Positions 5,601 through 26,959 are shown, counted from the first letter of the stretch. The stretch is 64,000 nucleotides of DNA from a virus (IMGVR_UViG_3300048854_000273:43413-107412); one strand, 5' to 3'. Made by a program: numbers and translations. The notes: generated by a model not told the origin, from the letters alone.

Positions 5601-5987
5601 TCAGACGATCACCCAGTCTTCAGCCAGCATGTCGGTCTGAGTTGGCACCCACGGGACTAACTTGTCGTCGGTTGTCTTGATGCAGACCCAGGGCAGCTCC
5701 GGCAGCTCGCCACCCTTACTGCTCGTCAGCAAGCAGCCCTGTGGGTCAAAAATTTCGAGCCACATGCCCTTGCCGTTCCATCCCGCGCGCGCGACTCGCT
5801 GGTCTAGCTTCACCGCGTCAATCGCTAGTCCAAACGTGAGACCATCAGCGGCGCGATAGGCTTTGTGGAACGTGTCAGCAGGTGACCAGCTCATGTAGCC
5901 GTCCTCGTATTGAACGGTGTAACCGTCGACGCCCTCACGGGCCTGCGGCTGTGCCTGGACGATCTTTGTGCCGATATAGCGCTTCAT
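5601..5987 (-). CDS. DUF2829-like protein
   Basis: ARAGWNGKGMWLEI matches the conserved GWNGKGM core of the phage-associated DUF2829 family (from memory). Confidence 0.5.
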   Translation of the reverse strand: MKRYIGTKIVQAQPQAREGVDGYTVQYEDGYMSWSPADTFHKAYRAADGLTFGLAIDAVKLDQRVARAGWNGKGMWLEIFDPQGCLLTSSKGGELPELPWVCIKTTDDKLVPWVPTQTDMLAEDWVIV

Positions 5988-6021: not shown

Positions 6022-6669
6022 TTAATGCGTAAGCAGATGGACCAGCGCGTTGCCAGCGTTGGTCAGGGAGTCGTCTTCGGTGAACCGCTGGGCCTTCATC
6101 GTGGACTCGATCAACTCCGTGATGGTGCTGACGTCCTCGACCGGAACCTTGAAGCGCATCACCTGGTGGGTCTGAACCGCCTTCTCTTTCGGGAGAACGC
6201 TCGGGCTCCCGTCATCGTCCGGTATGTCTAAATCATCCAGCGCTATATTTACTGACGAGAAGATCGACGCGAAATCAGCGTCGGTGTAGGGCATGAAGCT
6301 CGCGAGGTCATCGGGTGAGCCCAGACCTTCCAGAAGCTCCGCCAGGCGCAACGTGTCGTCGTTGCCGTAGCGGCCGTTGTCGACCAGGCTGATCTCTTTT
6401 GCCCGCTTGTCGTCAATGCGACCGAGGTTCGTCACCGGCACCTGCGATAGCTTCAAACGGATCGCTGCATCGCGCCGGTGTGCGCCGCCCAGGATCTCCA
6501 GTGAGCCGTCATCCAGTTCGCGAACGATGATCGGCTTGAAGAGGCCCAGGCGCGTGATGGACGCGTCAATCTTGGCCTCGTTCTCGGGGCTGACCACGTT
6601 CGTGTTCCAGCCGTTGTGCTTCAATCGCTCGGGCGCGATCTGCACCGACTGGAATGGGGTTTTGCTCAT
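6022..6669 (-). CDS. ParB-like nuclease domain protein
   Basis: LEILGGAHRRDAAIRL ParB-type motif; AGGA RBS; motif 6690-6703 lies 20 nt upstream. Confidence 0.65.
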   Translation of the reverse strand: MSKTPFQSVQIAPERLKHNGWNTNVVSPENEAKIDASITRLGLFKPIIVRELDDGSLEILGGAHRRDAAIRLKLSQVPVTNLGRIDDKRAKEISLVDNGRYGNDDTLRLAELLEGLGSPDDLASFMPYTDADFASIFSSVNIALDDLDIPDDDGSPSVLPKEKAVQTHQVMRFKVPVEDVSTITELIESTMKAQRFTEDDSLTNAGNALVHLLTH

Positions 6670-6689: not shown

Positions 6690-6703
6690 AGTCAGTTTTG
6701 ACT
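6690..6703 (+). promoter_or_regulatory. motif AGTCAGTTTTGACT in divergent region
   Basis: 20 nt upstream of 6022..6669 start and 37 nt upstream of helicase ATG. Confidence 0.6.
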
Positions 6704-9995: not shown

Positions 9996-10153
9996 GCTTT
10001 CATGGTGTCGTTCTCCCCCGTTTTTGACGGTCGGATTATAGACAGCCTCAGCGCCGAAATGGGCAAGGTGTAAGGATTGCCCAACACCTACCCAACTATG
10101 GGGCGCGAGCGATTCGGGGTGGCTGTCTATATTCATTCGGTTACGACTGAATA

Positions 10154-10658
10154 TGAGGGCAGCATGATCGAAGAATGGCGGGATGTGGTGGGCGCAGCGG
10201 GTCTTTACGAGGTGTCGAACCTTGGGCGAGTGCGGAAGGACGGCGGTCGCGTCATGGCGACTCAGCGGGTCTCCAAAGACGACGCTCATCGACGGGCGCG
10301 CCTGACCATTGCCGATAAGCGCGTGAAGCGACTGGTTCACGTTCTTGTTCTGGAAGCGTTTGTCGGGCCGCGGCCGCTCGGAATGGAAAGTTGTCATGAC
10401 GACGACGACCCCGAAAACAACGCTCTCTCGAACCTGCGATGGGACACCTCGCTCGGGAACAAGCAGGACGCTCAGCGGAACGGTCGCACGGCTCGGGGTG
10501 AGCGCATTGCACAATCAACCCTCACAGAGGCTCAGGTGCGAAAGATCAAGTCGGCGGCCGGCAAGAGCGAGCGTGAACTGGCTCGTGAATTCGGCGTCAC
10601 GCGCGGGGCAATTCAGGGCGTGAAGCGCGGCACCACGTGGGCGTGGCTGGAAGTATAA
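10154..10658 (+). CDS. HNH homing endonuclease (NUMOD4 + HNH + C-terminal HTH)
   Basis: YEVSNLGRVR (NUMOD4), CHDDDDPENNALSNLRWDT (HNH), ...LAREFGVTRGAIQ (HTH); GAGGG RBS. Confidence 0.75.
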
Positions 10659-10986: not shown

Positions 10987-11002
10987 CGTTTCACGTGAAA
11001 CA
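10987..11002. promoter_or_regulatory. canonical parS centromere-like site CGTTTCACGTGAAACA
   Basis: 15/16 match to the chromosomal parS consensus TGTTTCACGTGAAACA; perfect 14-bp palindrome GTTTCACGTGAAAC. Confidence 0.6.
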
Positions 11003-11015
11003 CTCAGTTTTGACT
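11002..11015 (+). promoter_or_regulatory. motif ACTCAGTTTTGACT abutting parS
   Basis: read directly. Confidence 0.55.
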
Positions 11016-11023
11016 ATCTCTAG

Positions 11024-11770
11024 TTACACAGAAAAGAGCGCTTGCACTTTCTTAGCTGCGTTCGACTCAGTGAGCGTGATTGAGTCGTCTTTACGACCCT
11101 TCACGACGTTGCAAATGTTCATAAAGCGCAACATTTGACGCGTGCTAGATGCTTGCGTGCTTGCGGTTGACGGTTCGCACATTTTGAAGCTGCGCACCGC
11201 TTCGGTTTGCATATCTTCACTAAAGACAACTTTATTTGAGAGCGAGATTTGCGAACCGCGATTAGACAGCGCTTGCAACTTCGTCAGATTACGCAGAATA
11301 GCGACCGTGTAACCGTCAAATACTGACGTCATACCGCATGCGAGAGCAAACACCGCTTTACGGATCTTTTGCGCTGCATAGATAGCGATGTAGTCGTGTG
11401 CGCGTGCATCGCTAATGGCGTATTGGCGCGACAGCGCTTCAAAGTCAATTTCAAGCTCAATGCAACGCTCAATAGCGATCAGAGCATTACGACCGCTCAA
11501 AGCGCTCAATTCAGCGTTCATGTTCTTTTTGAAGTTATCGGACGGTGCATTCACAATGCGCGTTTTGATCGATTCGAGAATCAGCGTTTGCATGCGAACC
11601 GCTTTATCTGCATTCGATTCAGTTTGAACCGGTGCAGCGCTTTCAATCGTCGTTTCGACTGCGAGCGCTTCAACCGTTTGCACTTCGTCTCGCGTGAGCG
11701 TTTCGACAGCTTGAACCGGTGCGTTCTTACGTGCGCGCTTTGCTTTCGTGACGTTTGCTTGTGCGTTCAT
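11024..11770 (-). CDS. hypothetical protein (248 aa) in a low-GC island
   Basis: ORF with distinctly lower GC than neighbours; flanked by parS (10987) and a half-parS TGTTTCACGTG (11783-11793). Confidence 0.5.
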   Translation of the reverse strand: MNAQANVTKAKRARKNAPVQAVETLTRDEVQTVEALAVETTIESAAPVQTESNADKAVRMQTLILESIKTRIVNAPSDNFKKNMNAELSALSGRNALIAIERCIELEIDFEALSRQYAISDARAHDYIAIYAAQKIRKAVFALACGMTSVFDGYTVAILRNLTKLQALSNRGSQISLSNKVVFSEDMQTEAVRSFKMCEPSTASTQASSTRQMLRFMNICNVVKGRKDDSITLTESNAAKKVQALFSV

Positions 11771-11800
11771 TTTTCGACTCTCAAAGTGTGTTGTGTTTCA

Positions 11801-11814
11801 CGTGTCAGACAGTC
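11801..11814 (+). promoter_or_regulatory. motif AGTCAGTTTTTACT
   Basis: 30 nt upstream of 11024..11770 start; preceded by half-parS. Confidence 0.55.
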
Positions 11815-11982
11815 AGTTTTTACTGTCTGTCTCGCTACAACGTTGCAGCGAGTAGAGACAGTATGACGACATATGAAACACATGTAAATATCTTTCGCAC
11901 GTATTTTCTAGAGTCGTTACTGGAGTTGTTTTTGCGCGGAACCGCTTGCAGGGCCGCTCGGGCGGGTGTAGTGGCGAGGGCT

Positions 11983-12058
11983 GGATGAGGACGCTCCTCA
12001 GTCAGGCGGGTGGATGAGGATGATCCTTGTCCTAGGGCGTGGATGAGGACGCTCCTCA
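11983..12058 (+). repeat. three direct repeats GGATGAGGA(CGCTCCTCA) at 11983, 12012, 12041 (exact 29-bp period)
   Basis: read directly; non-coding stretch that also contains CCTAGG x3. Confidence 0.6.
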
Positions 12059-12182
12059 CCCTGAGCCGCCCTAGGCCACGCCACGACCTCGGGTAACGGC
12101 CTAGGAGCTTCCCCAAGGGCGGCCTTAAAAATCCCGAAAGCGTGTCGGCGGCCTCTCCCGTTCCGACACCCTGGCCCTACCC

Positions 12183-12368
12183 TCAATACGCCTCCATCAC
12201 ACCCAGACGGCCGTTGGTGCGGATCTGGGCACGCAGGTGGTTGATCTCGGCCTCCTCCTGCTGCATCTCCAGCCAGTCGATCAACTGGTGCGGCTTCATT
12301 CCGCGGTATTGGGTGATCGACGGCTCGGCAGCTTCAGTGTGGATTTCGACAGGGCGGAGGTTCATGGT
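12183..12368 (-). CDS. small hypothetical protein (~61 aa)
   Basis: MRTTMNLRPVEIHTEAAEPSITQYRGMKPHQLIDWLEMQQEEAEINHLRAQIR; motif 11 nt upstream. Confidence 0.35.
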   Translation of the reverse strand, partial: TMNLRPVEIHTEAAEPSITQYRGMKPHQLIDWLEMQQEEAEINHLRAQIRTNGRLGVMEAY

Positions 12369-12379
12369 AGTTCTCATTT

Positions 12380-12393
12380 CAGGGTTTAAGTCA
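12380..12393 (+). promoter_or_regulatory. motif AGTCAGTTTTGACT
   Basis: 11 nt upstream of ATG 12368. Confidence 0.6.
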
Positions 12394-12554
12394 GTTTTGA
12401 CTGTATGTGGTGATACGGAATTAACGGGTAGCCATGCGGAAGATGCCGTAGGCCGTCTTGTAGGCTTCGCGGGGCGAAGCACCGGCCCGGCGAGCTCCGA
12501 GATACGCGTCACGCTCGATGGGTCGCAGCGAGCGAAAGGCAGCAGCAAGGGCGC

Positions 12555-12714
12555 TCATGCGTGCTCTCCCGGTGTGCGGTGTGCGTCACCCTGCACCCGT
12601 TTGATGACCCAGAGCAGCCCGTCGATTGCCTTGACCCAGGCGAAGGTGATCACGGCACCGGCGAGGATGACGAGAAGGAACGCGCAGATCCACTGCAGGA
12701 GGTCTTCGTTGTTC
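12555..12714 (-). CDS. small membrane protein (~53 aa)
   Basis: MNNEDLLQWICAFLLVILAGAVITFAWVKAIDGLLWVIKRV. Confidence 0.35.
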
Positions 12715-12735
12715 ATGGCGTGTGTTTCGCTGTTG

Positions 12736-12781
12736 TGTGAGCGATCAGTATCTCGACCGCTCACAGGGCTTGTGGTGGGTA
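12736..12781 (-). promoter_or_regulatory. hairpin TGTGAGCG-n14-CGCTCACA followed by CAGGGCTTGTGGTGGGTA (copy 1 of paired element)
   Basis: 8-bp perfect inverted repeat immediately 3' of the stop of 12783..13124. Confidence 0.5.
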
Positions 12782-12782
12782 G

Positions 12783-13124
12783 TTAAGCGGCGCTCAGTTC
12801 GGGGATCAGCATCGGCAGGCTGGTGACGCACTCGGGGTCGCATTGCAGGGCAAACGCGTCGGCAAGGGGCACACCGCGGCGACGAAAGGCGTTCAACGTG
12901 GCACTGACGCAGGCTTCGAGGTGCTGGGCATCGCGGTAGCGATCACAGACGGGCATAAAGGACTCGACCGTGAGGGCGCTACCGTCAAGCGTGAGCTTTC
13001 CAATGCGCTGGCCCTGCGCGTCATTGACGACGAGCACACAGGCACCGTTCGTGCGCTGATGCAGGCGGTAAAGACGGGTGCGGTGAGTGCGGTAGGCTGC
13101 GCGCTGTGCGGGGGTCGTTGTCAT
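12783..13124 (-). CDS. hypothetical protein (113 aa)
   Basis: ORF with coding-like composition. Confidence 0.45.
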   Translation of the reverse strand: MTTTPAQRAAYRTHRTRLYRLHQRTNGACVLVVNDAQGQRIGKLTLDGSALTVESFMPVCDRYRDAQHLEACVSATLNAFRRRGVPLADAFALQCDPECVTSLPMLIPELSAA

Positions 13125-13148
13125 CGTGTGTCTGCGTCGTTTGTTAAG

Positions 13149-13192
13149 TGAGATTGCAGTGTCGCAATCTCATACAGGGCATGTGGTGGGTA
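13149..13192 (-). promoter_or_regulatory. hairpin TGAGATTGC-n6-GCAATCTCA followed by CAGGGCATGTGGTGGGTA (copy 2 of paired element)
   Basis: 9-bp perfect inverted repeat immediately 3' of the stop of 13205..13399; 18-mer 17/18 identical to copy 1. Confidence 0.5.
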
Positions 13193-13204
13193 TCGGCTCG
13201 GCTC

Positions 13205-13399
13205 TCAGGCGAGGGCGTGCAACTGGACTTCGTAGCTGCGGCCGATCATGGCGACCGGGTCGTCGACGTCGGCTTCGAGCGGGATCAGGACGGCGGGGAT
13301 CGCAGCTTCGGAAGGCAGGTCAGCGGGGAACGGGTAGGTCACGTCGCACACGAAGGTGTCGGTGGAGATGTCGTAGTCTTTGATCTTGATGGTCAGCAT
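13205..13399 (-). CDS. small hypothetical protein (64 aa)
   Basis: ORF; motif 13441-13454 lies 41 nt upstream. Confidence 0.4.
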   Translation of the reverse strand: MLTIKIKDYDISTDTFVCDVTYPFPADLPSEAAIPAVLIPLEADVDDPVAMIGRSYEVQLHALA

Positions 13400-13440
13400 T
13401 TCTGTTCTCGGTTGCGTCGCACGTCGCGACAGACATCATT

Positions 13441-13454
13441 ATTCAGTTTTGACT
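13441..13454 (+). promoter_or_regulatory. motif ATTCAGTTTTGACT
   Basis: 41 nt upstream of ATG 13399. Confidence 0.5.
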
Positions 13455-13499
13455 GTGGCTTTACTGTGGGAATCGGCTCGGCGTTTCCCTAGCTCCCTC

Positions 13500-13730
13500 T
13501 CCGTCGGCCTAGGACGATCCCCTTGGCCAGCTCCTGCATTCCCTCACCCTGACACCCGAGCCGGCCTAGGCTCATCACCAAAGGGCGGCCTAGGTCACCT
13601 CCCGATCCGCCCTCGGAAACGTCATAAGGGTGTCGGCCGCGGCTCCCGTTGCCTTGGTGCTCGGCCTAGGGCGAACCCCGTGGAGTCTTCTGAAACTTGG
13701 GTAGGTGTGTCGGCGACGGCGCCCGTTCTT
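13500..13730. repeat. non-coding repeat cluster: CGGCCTAGG x4 (13508, 13565, 13589, 13665) plus GTGTCGGC..CTCCCGTT x2 (13630-13650, 13707-13727)
   Basis: read directly; no convincing ORF. Confidence 0.55.
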
Positions 13731-14016
13731 ATACTTCCCATACAGCTACAATTCGACTAATGAAGGGGTTGGGTTGAAGCTCAGCGCAGATGTAATGGAA
13801 GCAACGATCATCAGTAGCTAGGCTCTCAACTCCAGTGGCCCCTCACTGTCTCCAGGCTCATCACCCGTCAACCCTTTCTCGCTACGTTCATGCCTTCCGT
13901 TCTGTCCGTCAGGCAACCGGCCCCCTTCAATGCCGGCATCGCTTCTGTCCTGTTTTCTTCCCGACGACCCAGGCAGGGGTCTCATAGTCTTGGAGCGGGG
14001 AGTGCTCTTGCAGCGG

Positions 14017-14030
14017 TAGGGATCATACTC
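14017..14030 (+). promoter_or_regulatory. motif ACTCAGTTTTGACT
   Basis: in the non-coding region 13760-14190. Confidence 0.5.
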
Positions 14031-14195
14031 AGTTTTGACTGTTGTCGTCAATGCAGGTTGGGAGGCAATGTGTAAGTGTTGGCGGGCGCGCAACGATTTT
14101 CGTCGCTGTATAGCTATACCGCCTCCCCTCTCCCCGCACCTTTACGTCTTATCCTTTCCATACCGTAAGCCGCACCCCTTGCCGGAGCCACTGCT

Positions 14196-15422: not shown

Positions 15423-15761
15423 TCACAGATCGAGGATCATTTTCACCGCAAATTTAGCGGCATCAAGTTCTTCCTCTGTAGCCCGCTCCCCGTTGAACTT
15501 GAACTCCCTCGCCTTGAAGGAAAGCGTGGTTATCTGGTCGACAAGGGCAACGCCTGGACGTGCGAGACTGGACAGCGGAATCTCCGTCTCCCACCCGCGC
15601 ACCGTGGAGGTGATTGGCAGCCCAATGATCCGGCCGGTCAGTTCGTTTATGTCCTGCGGACTGAGCACTACAACGGCTCGATACCCGTCCTGTTCGTTAC
15701 CCTTGCTCGGCCCGATGTAGAGCCGAATAATGTCGCCAGCTTCCGGTATTCCGTTTTGCAT
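15423..15761 (-). CDS. mazF: MazF/PemK-family endoribonuclease toxin
   Basis: GDIIRLYIGPSKGNEQDGYRAVVVLSP...GVALVDQITTLSFKAR aligns with E. coli MazF (DLIWVDFDPTKGSEQAGHRPAVVLSP...GVALADQVKSIAWRAR). Confidence 0.8.
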   Translation of the reverse strand: MQNGIPEAGDIIRLYIGPSKGNEQDGYRAVVVLSPQDINELTGRIIGLPITSTVRGWETEIPLSSLARPGVALVDQITTLSFKAREFKFNGERATEEELDAAKFAVKMILDL

Positions 15762-15767
15762 TCGTAT

Positions 15768-16055
15768 TTACCATTTGTCGAATCGCGTTGGATCGTCGGA
15801 ACCCCCGAGTTCCGAACCCTGCGGCTCGCCAAAGTCGATCGTCTCATGCGGCACAAGCTGGCGATCACGGAGCTGCTGCAAATACCGCTCGCGTGAGAAC
15901 CTCCTAATTGCCTTGTGCGGACGGATCAATACCTTCCCGTCCTGCACTTCGACGTCTACCTCCTGACCCTCCGAGAACGCCACCTCACCGGCGACGCTCG
16001 CGGGAATCCGAACCGCAAGGCTATTACCCCAACGCTTCAGGGTTTGAATAGCCAT
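15768..16055 (-). CDS. mazE: MazE-type antitoxin (AbrB/SpoVT fold)
   Basis: MAIQTLKRWGNSLAVRIPASVA vs E. coli MazE VKRWGNSPAVRIPATLM; C-terminus DFGEPQ...RFDKW vs DWGEPKDKEVW. Confidence 0.75.
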   Translation of the reverse strand: MAIQTLKRWGNSLAVRIPASVAGEVAFSEGQEVDVEVQDGKVLIRPHKAIRRFSRERYLQQLRDRQLVPHETIDFGEPQGSELGGSDDPTRFDKW

Positions 16056-16166
16056 CAAACTCTCTCCATCAGTGACGCGACCGGGAGGAGCCCGGTTCCC
16101 CTTCGTCTTCGATCCCTCAGCACACACGTAAGGAAGCTACGTGTCATTTTTTTATGTTTATACATC

Positions 16167-22303: not shown

Positions 22304-23218
22304 TTACTGCAGCCCGATCGCCTTTCGGTAGGCGATCAGATCGAGGGGTTTGCGGCCAACGTCCTTGGCCTTCTCGTAGCGCAGGTCCGGGTTCTTGAGC
22401 CACGCCTCGACGACGCCCAGGACCACGTCACGGATTTTCTTCTGTGACGTGCCGTTACCCCAGCCGTCCTGCTTCATCACCAGCAGCCACTGCGCGAGCC
22501 CTTCGACCGCGTCATAGCCGCTCTCGCCCTTGGTGCCGCGGCCCTCGACGAACGCTCGCCAGAACCCAAGCACCGGCTCGCCATGCTTGCGATACGTGAT
22601 CAGGAAGATGGACGTAACCGGGTTGATAAACTGCGTGCGCTTCACGTCCAGCTCGTCCAGCGCCATTAGCTCCGTCGCCCAGAAGCCTGCGCGCTCACCT
22701 CGGTCGGTGATGGCCGCGGGTGTGATCGGCGTGAGTGCGGCCGAGAACCGCATGTCCTTGCAGTAGCTGGACTGGAACTCGAGCCCGAGCATGCGGCACG
22801 CGCCATAGACCTTGTCCGTTACAGTCTCCACAGCTGCCGCGCTGTCGTAGAACGAGTAGAGGGTGCGGGCGTGGGCCAGGTTCTCCACTTTGTGGACCGT
22901 GACTAGCAGCTTGTCTGGTGCCGGCGCGCGTCCCTCACGCCAGAGCAGATCGCGGCTGTGGCCGTTGATCTTGACGAGCGATCCGTCCGGCAGGCGTGCG
23001 GCGTGGACCTCGCGGTGCGGCGAAGCGTAGGTCTGCATGTGCCTCTCGATCCGACCTGCATGCTTCTCTGTGTCACGCTGGACGTCGATCGCCGCGACGG
23101 TTGCCCATTCGGCGGGCGTCATCAGCAGGATTTCCAGATCCTCGGGGATCGCATTACTGTGGAGTTTTACGCCAGCCGACGTCGGCTGCACTGAAACTAG
23201 GGTGTGCTTAATGTTCAT
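22304..23218 (-). CDS. hypothetical protein (304 aa)
   Basis: ORF with coding-like composition. Confidence 0.5.
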   Translation of the reverse strand: MNIKHTLVSVQPTSAGVKLHSNAIPEDLEILLMTPAEWATVAAIDVQRDTEKHAGRIERHMQTYASPHREVHAARLPDGSLVKINGHSRDLLWREGRAPAPDKLLVTVHKVENLAHARTLYSFYDSAAAVETVTDKVYGACRMLGLEFQSSYCKDMRFSAALTPITPAAITDRGERAGFWATELMALDELDVKRTQFINPVTSIFLITYRKHGEPVLGFWRAFVEGRGTKGESGYDAVEGLAQWLLVMKQDGWGNGTSQKKIRDVVLGVVEAWLKNPDLRYEKAKDVGRKPLDLIAYRKAIGLQ

Positions 23219-23431: not shown

Positions 23432-23620
23432 TTATCCTTCCGACTTCATGTGGCCGTTCTCGATCAGCCACTCTTCAATGTCGCCCTCCGCCGTCGAACA
23501 GGCGCGCCGATAGGAGGCGAACGAGTCGTCTCCAAAGCGGCGCGTGTGCATCAGATTGCTCTTGAGCCGCTTCAGGAGCTCGACGGCGCTTTTTTTGAGT
23601 TCGTCGTCCGGCATCACCAA
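23432..23620 (-). CDS. small hypothetical protein
   Basis: ORF. Confidence 0.4.
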   Translation of the reverse strand: MVMPDDELKKSAVELLKRLKSNLMHTRRFGDDSFASYRRACSTAEGDIEEWLIENGHMKSEG

Positions 23621-26581: not shown

Positions 26582-26959
26582 ATGAGAAAGATCGCTTTGG
26601 CAATGGCATTGCTGACTAGTGCTGCGACGGCGAGCGCTACGGATTGGACACTCCTAGGTAGGAGCGACAACAGCGTTCTCTACGTCGCGATGGACAAGCT
26701 CGAATATCGAGGCAACACGGTCGTATTTTGGGACAAGCAGATATATGGAAAACCCGTAACTATCGGCCCTTACACGTATCTATATTCAGTCGCAAAGGAA
26801 GAACTTTCATGCACCGAGAGTAAATTTCGGTCCCTGACGACTTCCATCTATTCGGCGGCTGGCGAAGTTCAGAGCACGTTTAATACAACCAACTGGTTCG
26901 ACATTCCGCCAGACACAATGATGGAAAAGGTTGCCACTACCCTGTGTCGGCCACAGTAA
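26582..26959 (+). CDS. secreted protein (signal peptide), paralog A, low GC
   Basis: MRKIALAMALLTSAATASATDWTLL... Confidence 0.55.
   Translation: MRKIALAMALLTSAATASATDWTLLGRSDNSVLYVAMDKLEYRGNTVVFWDKQIYGKPVTIGPYTYLYSVAKEELSCTESKFRSLTTSIYSAAGEVQSTFNTTNWFDIPPDTMMEKVATTLCRPQ

Follow-up and report, generated by a model that had tools for sequence, protein, structure and literature searches.

Why do the same short repeats recur in the non-coding DNA on either side of a cluster of small genes in a large tailed phage, and what do they do there? The question was raised by a 64,000-nucleotide (nt) stretch of viral DNA (IMGVR_UViG_3300048854_000273:43413-107412; the whole stretch is hereafter called the window), in which a first-pass annotation had grouped three repeat families as iteron-like arrays typical of replication origins, packaging (pac/cos) regions, or partition sites. 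Only part of that grouping holds. The GGATGAGGA trio is indeed regularly spaced and is a distinct element, whereas the other two families, CGGCCTAGG and GTGTCGGC..CTCCCGTT, form opposite ends of a single dispersed, strand-specific unit of ~78 nt, termed M1-M2 here. The reading that we favor, with a probability of roughly 0.4 based on sequence comparison, is that M1-M2 would be a protein-read boundary of transcription units as well as a joint for cassette exchange, and that the GGATGAGGA trio would be a separate binding array for a dimeric protein, either an operator or an origin. Both of the non-coding stretches to which the annotation had drawn attention (11880-12180 and 13480-13760; regions A and B) are conserved control DNA of the early region.

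All of the repeats named in the annotation were recovered where it had placed them, and all exceed chance expectation. The three direct repeats comprise two identical TGGATGAGGACGCTCCTCA copies (11982-12000 and 12040-12058) and a 79% copy (12011-12029), both intervals being exactly 29 bp. The motif CGGCCTAGG occurs four times within 13480-13760, and GTGTCGGC..CTCCCGTT has exactly four copies (minus-strand starts 12162, 13650, 13727, and 23412) that depart from the consensus at 0-3 positions; the next-best match in the window has 5-6 mismatches. The CCTTAAAA prefix is common to positions 12123 and 23375, and the proposed hairpin GTGTCGG..CCGACAC folds (Table 1). Two of the counts required correction. 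CCTAGG is present at 11 sites in the window rather than the nine reported, versus 4.6 +/- 2.1 in shuffled sequences (0 of 100 shuffles reached 11). Its concentration outside genes was borne out: seven sites lie in the two flagged stretches and three in other intergenic gaps (15360, 16245, and 20236), and since the sole exception, at 26653, sits within a doubtful open reading frame (ORF), at least 10 of the 11 are non-coding. Likewise, of the three CCTAGG sites in 11880-12180, all described as GGCCTAGG units, only two have that sequence, one on each strand; the third reads TCCTAGGG.

On the minus strand, the unit consists of (T)GAAACGGGAG-N6-CCGACAC (M1, with a length of 21 nt made up of 8, 6 variable, and 7 nt), followed by 9-11 nt, TTT(T), 20-30 variable nt, and then M2, which reads C(T/C)(T/A)(G/A)GGC(C)G(A/T)T.CCCC-nn-GG and is represented by CCTAGGCCG in most window copies. 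An alignment of 24 copies from the window and its relatives shows both blocks in fixed order and at fixed distance (numbers such as L001 and L002 denote the relative loci compared with the window, and minus-strand features are often written from the higher to the lower coordinate). A profile hidden Markov model built from the relatives alone, with the window excluded, and searched with nhmmer recovered four full units in the window and nothing else, all on the minus strand, with matches spanning 66-78 nt at E-values of 1e-16 to 1e-9. These four units (A, B1, B2, and C; Table 1) are spread over three loci; M2-like modules were also found without M1.

The position of the unit is as regular as its sequence. 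Every copy is oriented in the sense of its flanking genes, 4 of 4 in the window and all of those in relatives (46 in the clade and related loci), and the unit always comes first after a transcription unit has ended, be it at a stop codon or at the 3' end of a structured RNA. Unit A begins 20 nt past the stop codon of a 60-amino acid (aa) gene (12183-12365, minus strand), unit C begins 19 nt past that of a 62-aa gene (23432-23620, minus strand), and unit B1 begins ~12 nt after the 3' closing helix of a structured RNA candidate described below. At seven loci (units A and C, L004, L006, L008, L035, and L038), M1 starts 0-26 nt past a stop codon, and in four cases the TGA or TAA within (T)GAAAC itself serves as the stop codon, the two overlapping as TGA-AAC. 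Orthologs of unit A were identified at L001, L002, L041, L042, and L043, those of unit B1 at L001 and L002 with an identical core, and those of unit C at L059, L035, and L038. The 5' arm of the hairpin around the M1 core of unit A is retained in the window and its five orthologs and is lost in L008 and L009. Both large non-coding regions, with about two units each, persist in relatives whose 248-aa protein (see below) is only 55% identical. The units are frequently in tandem, copy number varies (4 in the 64 kb examined here, ~6 in a 113-kb relative, there at about four loci), and the spacing between copies is irregular (37-167 nt). Such dispersed, irregular, gene-end, and transcription-oriented copies do not have the layout of an origin, a pac site, or a centromere. 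A pac or cos site was set aside, and a pac site at the repeats is unlikely: the repeats occur at three or more loci, and synteny with NZ_CP035046.1, a 107-kb Acinetobacter phage-plasmid, places the terminase gene outside the window, past its left end and at a distance of at least 11 kb.

How widely the unit is distributed was examined in viral, bacterial, and metagenomic sequence. In two scans of IMG/VR, matches were confined to this clade with the exception of one probable chance match, and a metagenome scan added further members (L056, L058, L059, L072, L075, and L076) among chance matches. Two genuine bacterial relatives were found, a Paraburkholderia ginsengisoli locus (L029) and a 354-kb metagenome contig (L092); they have in common a block of ~207 nt, the start of which coincides exactly with the M1 5' edge. 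L092, a mobile element, carries a serine recombinase and ParB-like genes, and its mazEF module (L092:9208-9845) is 64-70% identical at the amino-acid level to that of the phage (MazE_antitoxin and PemK toxin; 15423-16127, minus strand). A ParB-like protein as a factor common to the phage and this bacterial island was rejected, the similarity being marginal (E = 0.018). The unit is thus limited to one phage clade and a few Burkholderiaceae mobile elements. The annotation had allowed that the repeats might prove to be generic host REP elements. In 596 Gb of genomes the core motif gave 25 scattered single matches, distributed over unrelated phyla among 185,579 species genomes and never two per genome; this is about what 18 fixed bases predict by chance, and the unit is therefore not a host REP/BIME element.

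The phage itself is a large tailed phage with a genome of ~112 kb, for which metagenomic relatives of 111-119 kb were found. The window has a GC content of 59%, and nearly all of its genes lie on the minus strand; their products include a DnaE-type polymerase, RNR, UvsX, SbcCD, CobT/S-like proteins, a helicase, a ParB_N protein, Tad2, and mazEF. Among deposited phages, the closest (Rhizobium RHEph10/B1VFA, Stenotrophomonas phages, Pseudomonas nickie, and SSU5) have DnaE proteins of no more than 45% amino-acid identity. INPHARED contained no DNA match to the flagged regions and none to the 248-aa protein, by which known phage or plasmid DNA was ruled out. Since L043 is part of a Paraburkholderia sp. 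assembly, the host is probably Paraburkholderia. Homologs of the 248-aa protein with ~29% identity are encoded by ~107-kb Acinetobacter phage-plasmids, in which synteny is kept as far as the terminase. A ~110-kb DnaE-encoding phage-plasmid lineage has been described as kin to RHEph10, nickie, and SSU5 (PMC7969092), and the phage studied here is related to that lineage. Among its other genes are one for a Tad2-like (Thoeris anti-defense) protein (5601-5987, minus strand) and an HNH/NUMOD4 homing-endonuclease-like gene (10077-10658) that lies on the plus strand, opposite to most genes. An Nmad5 nucleotide-modification domain and ThyX are also encoded in the window and hint at modified DNA, which bears on the AvrII (CCTAGG) digestion proposed by the first-pass annotation. 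The segment at 26.4-27.6 kb is low in GC (52-56%) and without a confident gene call.

The position of M1-M2 at boundaries suggests that it blocks or ends transcription. In the proposed mechanism, a putative clade-specific factor would read the unit as a linear, asymmetric, two-box sequence, and the unit would then block elongation or terminate transcription in an orientation-dependent manner, or would signal transcript ends or processing. Such a factor would probably be new, because the unit is without the usual promoter, terminator, and hairpin signatures. In addition, because identical copies flank variable early genes, the unit may double as a homologous-recombination joint at which cassettes are swapped. 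Exchange of this kind is consistent with the break in L029/L092 homology exactly at the M1 5' edge, with the variable gene content between the arrays of different relatives, and with the two unrelated ~280-nt cassettes that fill the same slot directly 5' of M1 in unit B1.

Several observations weigh against this proposal. The reading factor is only putative, and its action could be at the DNA or the RNA level. The number of copies given above is far below that of the stoperators in cluster A mycobacteriophages (>20). The 304-aa gene that follows unit C after 175 nt (22304-23218, minus strand) has no recognizable promoter motif of its own; a strong terminator at unit C would silence this gene, and M1 could therefore be a promoter or a leaky signal. 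The 3' part of the unit in some relatives (CACTGATAGGGAG in L008 and L009) bears a likeness to the initiation region of T7-type promoters. Pairing between the 5' GAAAC and the 3' GTTTT is possible in ~60% of copies, including two covarying cases (CAAAC/GTTTG and CAAAAC/GTTTTG), although this was judged by eye only. Finally, for the trio, the kind of palindrome does not follow how far the 248-aa protein has diverged: the TCCTCATCC type is kept in L043 (55% identity), and other repeats are present in L008 and L009 (~66-69%), and so the 248-aa protein may not be the array binder.

Unit C also bears on the possibility that M1 is a promoter for an undescribed RNA polymerase or sigma factor, with transcription starting at the following GGGAG and the units serving as tandem promoters for downstream genes or short RNAs. 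The 304-aa gene that unit C precedes has no AGTCAAAACTGA motif (the gene-start motif described below), L029/L092 homology begins at the M1 5' edge as it might at the start of a transcription unit, CACTGATAGGGAG is similar to T7-type CACTATAGGGAG, and several relatives have a GTATAAG -10-like element in front of unit B1. We nevertheless regard a promoter as rather improbable. The best 25 of the 46 Pfam families matched by 99 window ORFs include no single-subunit RNA polymerase and no sigma factor, and the T7-type likeness, confined to two relatives, was rejected as evidence of such a promoter. The spacing and invariant bases do not fit ECF, sigma28, sigma32, or sigma54 promoters when compared by eye with textbook consensus sequences, and a promoter and terminator scan gave no match inside the units. 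Moreover, the initiation-like part is weakly conserved in the window copies (CACGCTTTCGGGA and CACACCTACCCAAG), M1 overlaps stop codons, and in L006 it sits directly upstream of a regular promoter motif. An intrinsic terminator was also rejected. The T-run lies 9-11 nt past the core without an abutting GC hairpin, and the same scan finds canonical terminators elsewhere; true hairpins with T-runs are present at other unit ends nearby (15416-15390, 20281-20264, and 22301-22280).

A further possibility is that the arrays act as RNA, either as processing or stability sites in untranslated regions or as a sponge for an RNA-binding protein, with the palindromes forming tandem stem-loops. The arrays hold many GGA/GGGAG motifs, co-orientation with transcription is strict, a sigma70-like promoter (14051-14022) reads through the structured RNA candidate into region B, the palindromes can form stems of 6-9 bp with 3-nt loops, and one copy in L002 carries a compensatory GAGAA/TTCTC change. 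Folding argues otherwise: RNAalifold on the unit found only three invariant pairs and no conserved fold, and in RNAduplex comparisons of M1 with its flanks the mean z was ~0 versus shuffles, with no excess complementarity. The repeats are, in addition, only 60-85% alike, and mismatches in the palindromes on the transcribed strand are mostly A-C (33 versus 9 G-U), which speaks against hairpins in minus-strand RNA, although the count is biased by the anchoring of copies. As a strand test, that count was discarded, and no conclusion was drawn from it, because one-arm anchoring biases the result and the copies are orthologous. A role of the arrays as RNA is quite unlikely. A pseudoknot (GGGAG with CTCC(T), CGGCC with GGCCG) was dropped because it fits 4 of ~16 units and needs a 1-nt loop across a 5-bp stem. 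Rfam gave no gathering-score match in the window or in six loci (at E <= 5 only a spurious TCV_H5), a transfer RNA scan found none, and integron attC sites, Xer/dif sites, CRISPR mini-arrays, and type III antitoxin repeats were rejected on sequence logic.

The variable copy number of the unit and its presence in unrelated mobile elements could also be taken to mean that M1-M2 copies are decaying small non-autonomous mobile elements or junction scars without function, and the alternation of CCTAGG with CCTATAAGG and CCCTATAGGG variants could represent TA-target footprints. This explanation is highly improbable. The M1 boxes are invariant across relatives with proteins diverged to 55% identity while their flanks diverge, the same two positions and the same orientation are kept in every relative, terminal inverted repeats are missing, and no transposase is present among the best 25 of 46 Pfam families for the window ORFs.

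Table 1. Coordinates of M1-M2 units and neighboring features in the window.
Feature	Position	Strand	Description
Unit A	12164-12087	-	nhmmer E = 1.8e-16; M1 core AACGGGAGAGGCCGCCGACAC (12162 to 12142), T-run, CCTAGGCCG (12105 to 12097)
Hairpin around unit A M1 core	12142-12169	-	GTGTCGG-loop-CCGACAC, -18.2 kcal/mol
Unit B1	13728-13652	-	nhmmer E = 6e-11; M1 = AACGGGCGCCGTCGCCGACAC
Unit B2	13650-13585	-	nhmmer E = 1.4e-9; M1 = AACGGGAGCCGCGGCCGACAC, 0 mismatches to consensus; 77 nt downstream of B1
Two M2-only modules	13504-13581	-	CCTAGGCCG at 13513 to 13505 and 13570 to 13562, each followed by CCnnGG-type motifs
Unit C	23414-23338	-	nhmmer E = 3.6e-14; M2 = CCTCGG/CCTTGGCGTTACCCC variant
Additional CCTAGG modules, region A	12028-12078		12031-12036 interleaved with the palindrome array; 12070-12075 in opposite orientation
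Palindrome array	11982-12058		three 29-bp tandem units, each a 21-bp imperfect palindrome GGATGAGGA-nnn-TCCTCATCC (complementary arms)
AT-rich stretch	11860-11940		40% GC; minimum of 27.5% GC in 40 nt from 11871 vs 59% for the window
22-bp palindrome	11831-11852		CTCGCTGCAACGTTG(T/C)AGCGAG, -14 kcal/mol; invariant alignment columns; abuts gene-start motif of 248-aa gene
Gene-start motif	11813-11824	-	AGT(C/A)AAAACTGA, upstream of 248-aa gene
248-aa winged-helix DNA-binding protein gene	11024-11770	-	directly downstream of region A
parS	10988-11001		perfect canonical chromosomal-type palindrome GTTTCACGTGAAAC; 1 kb from array
Five small genes (60, 45, 53, 113, and 64 aa)	12183-13399	-	between the two repeat regions; independent gene calls in L040
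Structured RNA candidate, ~265 nt	13740-14005	-	between sigma70-like promoter and unit B1

Read along the minus strand, the locus runs from the sigma70-like promoter at 14051-14022 through the structured RNA candidate, units B1 and B2, the two M2-only modules, and a gene-start motif at 13454 to the five small genes, whose content varies among relatives. It continues with unit A, the CCTAGG modules, the palindrome array, the AT-rich stretch, and the 22-bp palindrome, and ends with the gene-start motif at 11824, the 248-aa gene, and parS. The element that precedes unit B1 is a candidate for a previously undescribed RNA family on the basis of its alignment, in which five homologs (the window, L041, L042, L043, and L075) support 12 helices with 68 pairs and 95% of cells paired. 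A total of 15 pairs covary with changes on both sides, versus 5.5 +/- 1.7 in shuffles and 0-5 in slid controls. The many G-U pairs indicate that the fold is specific to the minus strand, and no Rfam match was obtained. In L001 (1436-1700), L002 (3817-4070), L009, and L039, the slot of this RNA is occupied by an unrelated non-coding cassette of ~260-280 nt with an internal duplication (GGGGGACTTGGTTCTT..) and some predicted structure.

The gene-start motif is an imperfect palindrome, (A/C)(T/A)AGTCAAAACTGA(C/G)TAT, with ~30 copies in the window (e.g., 6692-6703, 11004-11015, 31411-22, 41026-37, and 53950-61), each of which precedes a gene start and lies on the minus strand. A total of 17 are exact 12-mers, and further copies within the locus are at 12391-12402, 13443-13454, and 14029-14040. 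Some lie within the spacer of a sigma70-like promoter, as in TTGACG-18-TATGAT at 14051-14022, and others are 11-19 nt from the ATG (48596 and 51974). The motif represents a phage promoter or operator, or else a sequence associated with gene starts; in the Acinetobacter relative, a different palindrome, TTGACTTGTAACAAGTCAA, occupies the gene-start role.

The GGATGAGGA trio has a different character from M1-M2. Allowing up to two mismatches, the palindrome TGAGGAnnnTCCTCA has six matches in the window (2.2 +/- 1.3 expected), three of which are in the array, and all three minus-strand occurrences of the exact 9-mer TCCTCATCC are inside it. The exact 29-bp period is kept in L001 (three copies), L042 (four), L043 (two to three), and L076, and variants of individual copies, such as GGACAAGGA, are conserved across these same relatives. 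L008 and L009 have different repeats in the array slot, and the homologous region of the Acinetobacter phage-plasmids has no comparable arrays, only the different gene-start palindrome. Beyond the array the GC content drops to 27-35%, and in relatives the AT-rich stretch bears ACGTGCAAA/TTTGCACGT boxes. The protein encoded next to the array was modeled with a pLDDT of 88 as having a winged-helix domain; it has no match to a Rep family or to lambda O among the Pfam matches listed and no global structural match. The 248-aa gene itself has a GC content of 49% within the 59% GC genome. The trio would be a multi-site array for a dimeric DNA-binding protein that either controls the promoter of the 248-aa gene or acts as a lambda-style origin, and these two options, operator array and lambda-like origin, are equally tenable.

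A rival reading holds that region A, over the array, the AT-rich stretch, and the 22-bp palindrome, is an ori-lambda-like phage or plasmid origin and that M1 and M2 are accessory or unrelated. In such an origin, the dyad-symmetric iterons would be the binding sites of an initiator, and melting would occur in the neighboring AT-rich DNA. The locus has features that would be expected of it: three to four evenly spaced dyad-symmetric repeats with a conserved exact period, the region's lowest-GC 40 nt ~50-110 bp from the array, and a conserved 22-bp palindrome nearby. It lies directly upstream of a winged-helix gene and near helicase, ParB-like, and parS features, in a lineage kin to ~110-kb phage-plasmids (PMC7969092), and the replacement of the array by another repeat family in L008 and L009 would be expected of initiator-iteron specificity pairs. 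On the other hand, a period of 29 bp does not correspond to a whole number of helical turns. Plasmid iterons are usually ~22 or 33 bp apart. The 248-aa protein, besides being without the Rep/O or fold matches noted above, is a core gene in Acinetobacter phage-plasmids that have no such arrays, and a regulated promoter would show the identical layout. The DnaA-box consensus is not conserved, and DnaA boxes in the trio were rejected: TCATCCAC agrees with TTATCCACA at 7 of 9 positions, but L043 has TCATCCT. Lastly, the first-pass annotation had suggested an inflection in GC skew as a check. Cumulative skew has a local maximum at ~13.3 kb rather than an origin-type minimum, with no switch at 11.9 kb, although this signal is confounded by gene orientation and a partial genome. 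The peak arises from the inverted skew of the small-gene cluster, the minus-strand genes of which (12183-13399) have a C-rich coding strand and a plus-strand GC skew of +0.05 to +0.26, opposite to nearly all other minus-strand genes. At least three regular direct repeats and an adjacent AT-rich region are thus present and a skew minimum is not, and an origin spanning region A appears somewhat unlikely.

The same array could, for plasmid-like maintenance, be a partition centromere like F sopC. Each of its tandem units holds an inverted repeat, the gene for a ParB_N protein lies at 6022-6669 (minus strand), a canonical parS follows the 248-aa gene after 20 nt and is conserved (its position is kept in L001, L002, L008, L040, and L042), the lineage is kin to phage-plasmids, and there is a weak TubR fold resemblance among many winged-helix matches. 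We consider a centromere at the array very unlikely. No gene for a ParA, ParM, or TubZ NTPase lies beside it, the ParB_N gene is 5 kb away, and the array is missing from L008, L009, and the Acinetobacter relatives. The canonical parS, which is outside the flagged repeats, is already a centromere candidate. A parS half-site, CACGTGAAAC, is present at 11795-11808 in the 5' leader of the 248-aa gene.

If the elements of the locus are taken together, they might constitute a new non-coding control hub of a phage-plasmid-like genome, in which M1 is a hairpin-independent, sequence-specific termination or gating signal read by a putative factor common to Burkholderiaceae mobile elements, joined to the ~265-nt RNA and to a palindrome array that doubles as an origin; this combination is unlikely. 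Returning to M1-M2 as a boundary and exchange joint, dispersed, oriented intergenic repeats of this type offer a rare sequence handle on early transcription and gene swapping in large, poorly known phages. The unit is conserved across a ~110-120-kb Paraburkholderia phage clade and ties these phages to genomic islands with the same mazEF module. The array, the AT-rich stretch, and parS are origin or centromere candidates in a phage-plasmid-related lineage for which the modules of replication and partition have been little defined. The structured RNA candidate could found a testable new RNA family, and its presence, with that of parS, next door adds interest to the repeats.

Comparison with known systems helps to place both elements. 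The GGATGAGGA trio is like ori-lambda in having three to four regular dyad repeats, an AT-rich stretch, a palindrome, and a gene for a DNA-binding protein beside it. Ori-lambda has four dyad-symmetric 19-bp iterons together with an AT-rich region and a palindrome, and its elements follow one another as they do here. Unlike ori-lambda and iteron origins, the trio has a 29-bp period, is accompanied by no recognizable Rep/O homolog, and lies upstream of the gene and not inside it. In F-plasmid sopC, tandem 43-bp units each contain an inverted repeat. The trio is likewise an array of tandem inverted-repeat units in a phage-plasmid-related lineage; in contrast to sopC, it has only three to four units of 29 bp, lacks an adjacent partition operon, and has a separate canonical parS close by.

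For M1-M2, the nearest parallels are found in phage elements that sit at gene boundaries. The stoperators are asymmetric sites that occupy short intergenic spaces near gene ends in an orientation that follows transcription; their bipartite sequence is bound by a two-domain monomer, and they block elongation (PMC9283540). Like the stoperators of cluster A mycobacteriophages (L5 gp71-type), M1 is asymmetric, two-box, intergenic, stop-adjacent, and oriented with transcription. It differs in being 21 nt rather than 13 nt in length, in the T-run and the second module M2, in its ~4-6 copies per genome, which form tandem clusters in two large non-coding regions where stoperators number >20 genome-wide, and in that no M1 copy overlaps a recognized promoter, whereas the stoperator sites include the early lytic promoter. 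The PeSLs of T4-type phages are composite intergenic cassettes that flank small variable early genes and are points of homologous exchange (PMC4122927; PMC2839356). M1-M2 similarly flanks variable early genes and marks replacement breakpoints. However, PeSLs combine a terminator stem-loop with a sigma70 early promoter; M1-M2 has neither a conserved stem-loop nor a promoter consensus, and the repeated gene-start motif AGTCAAAACTGA is here a separate element. Because the site number and promoter copy of the stoperators and the stem-loop and promoter of the PeSLs are missing, M1-M2 is placed outside both families, which by analogy it appears to resemble in its manner of working.

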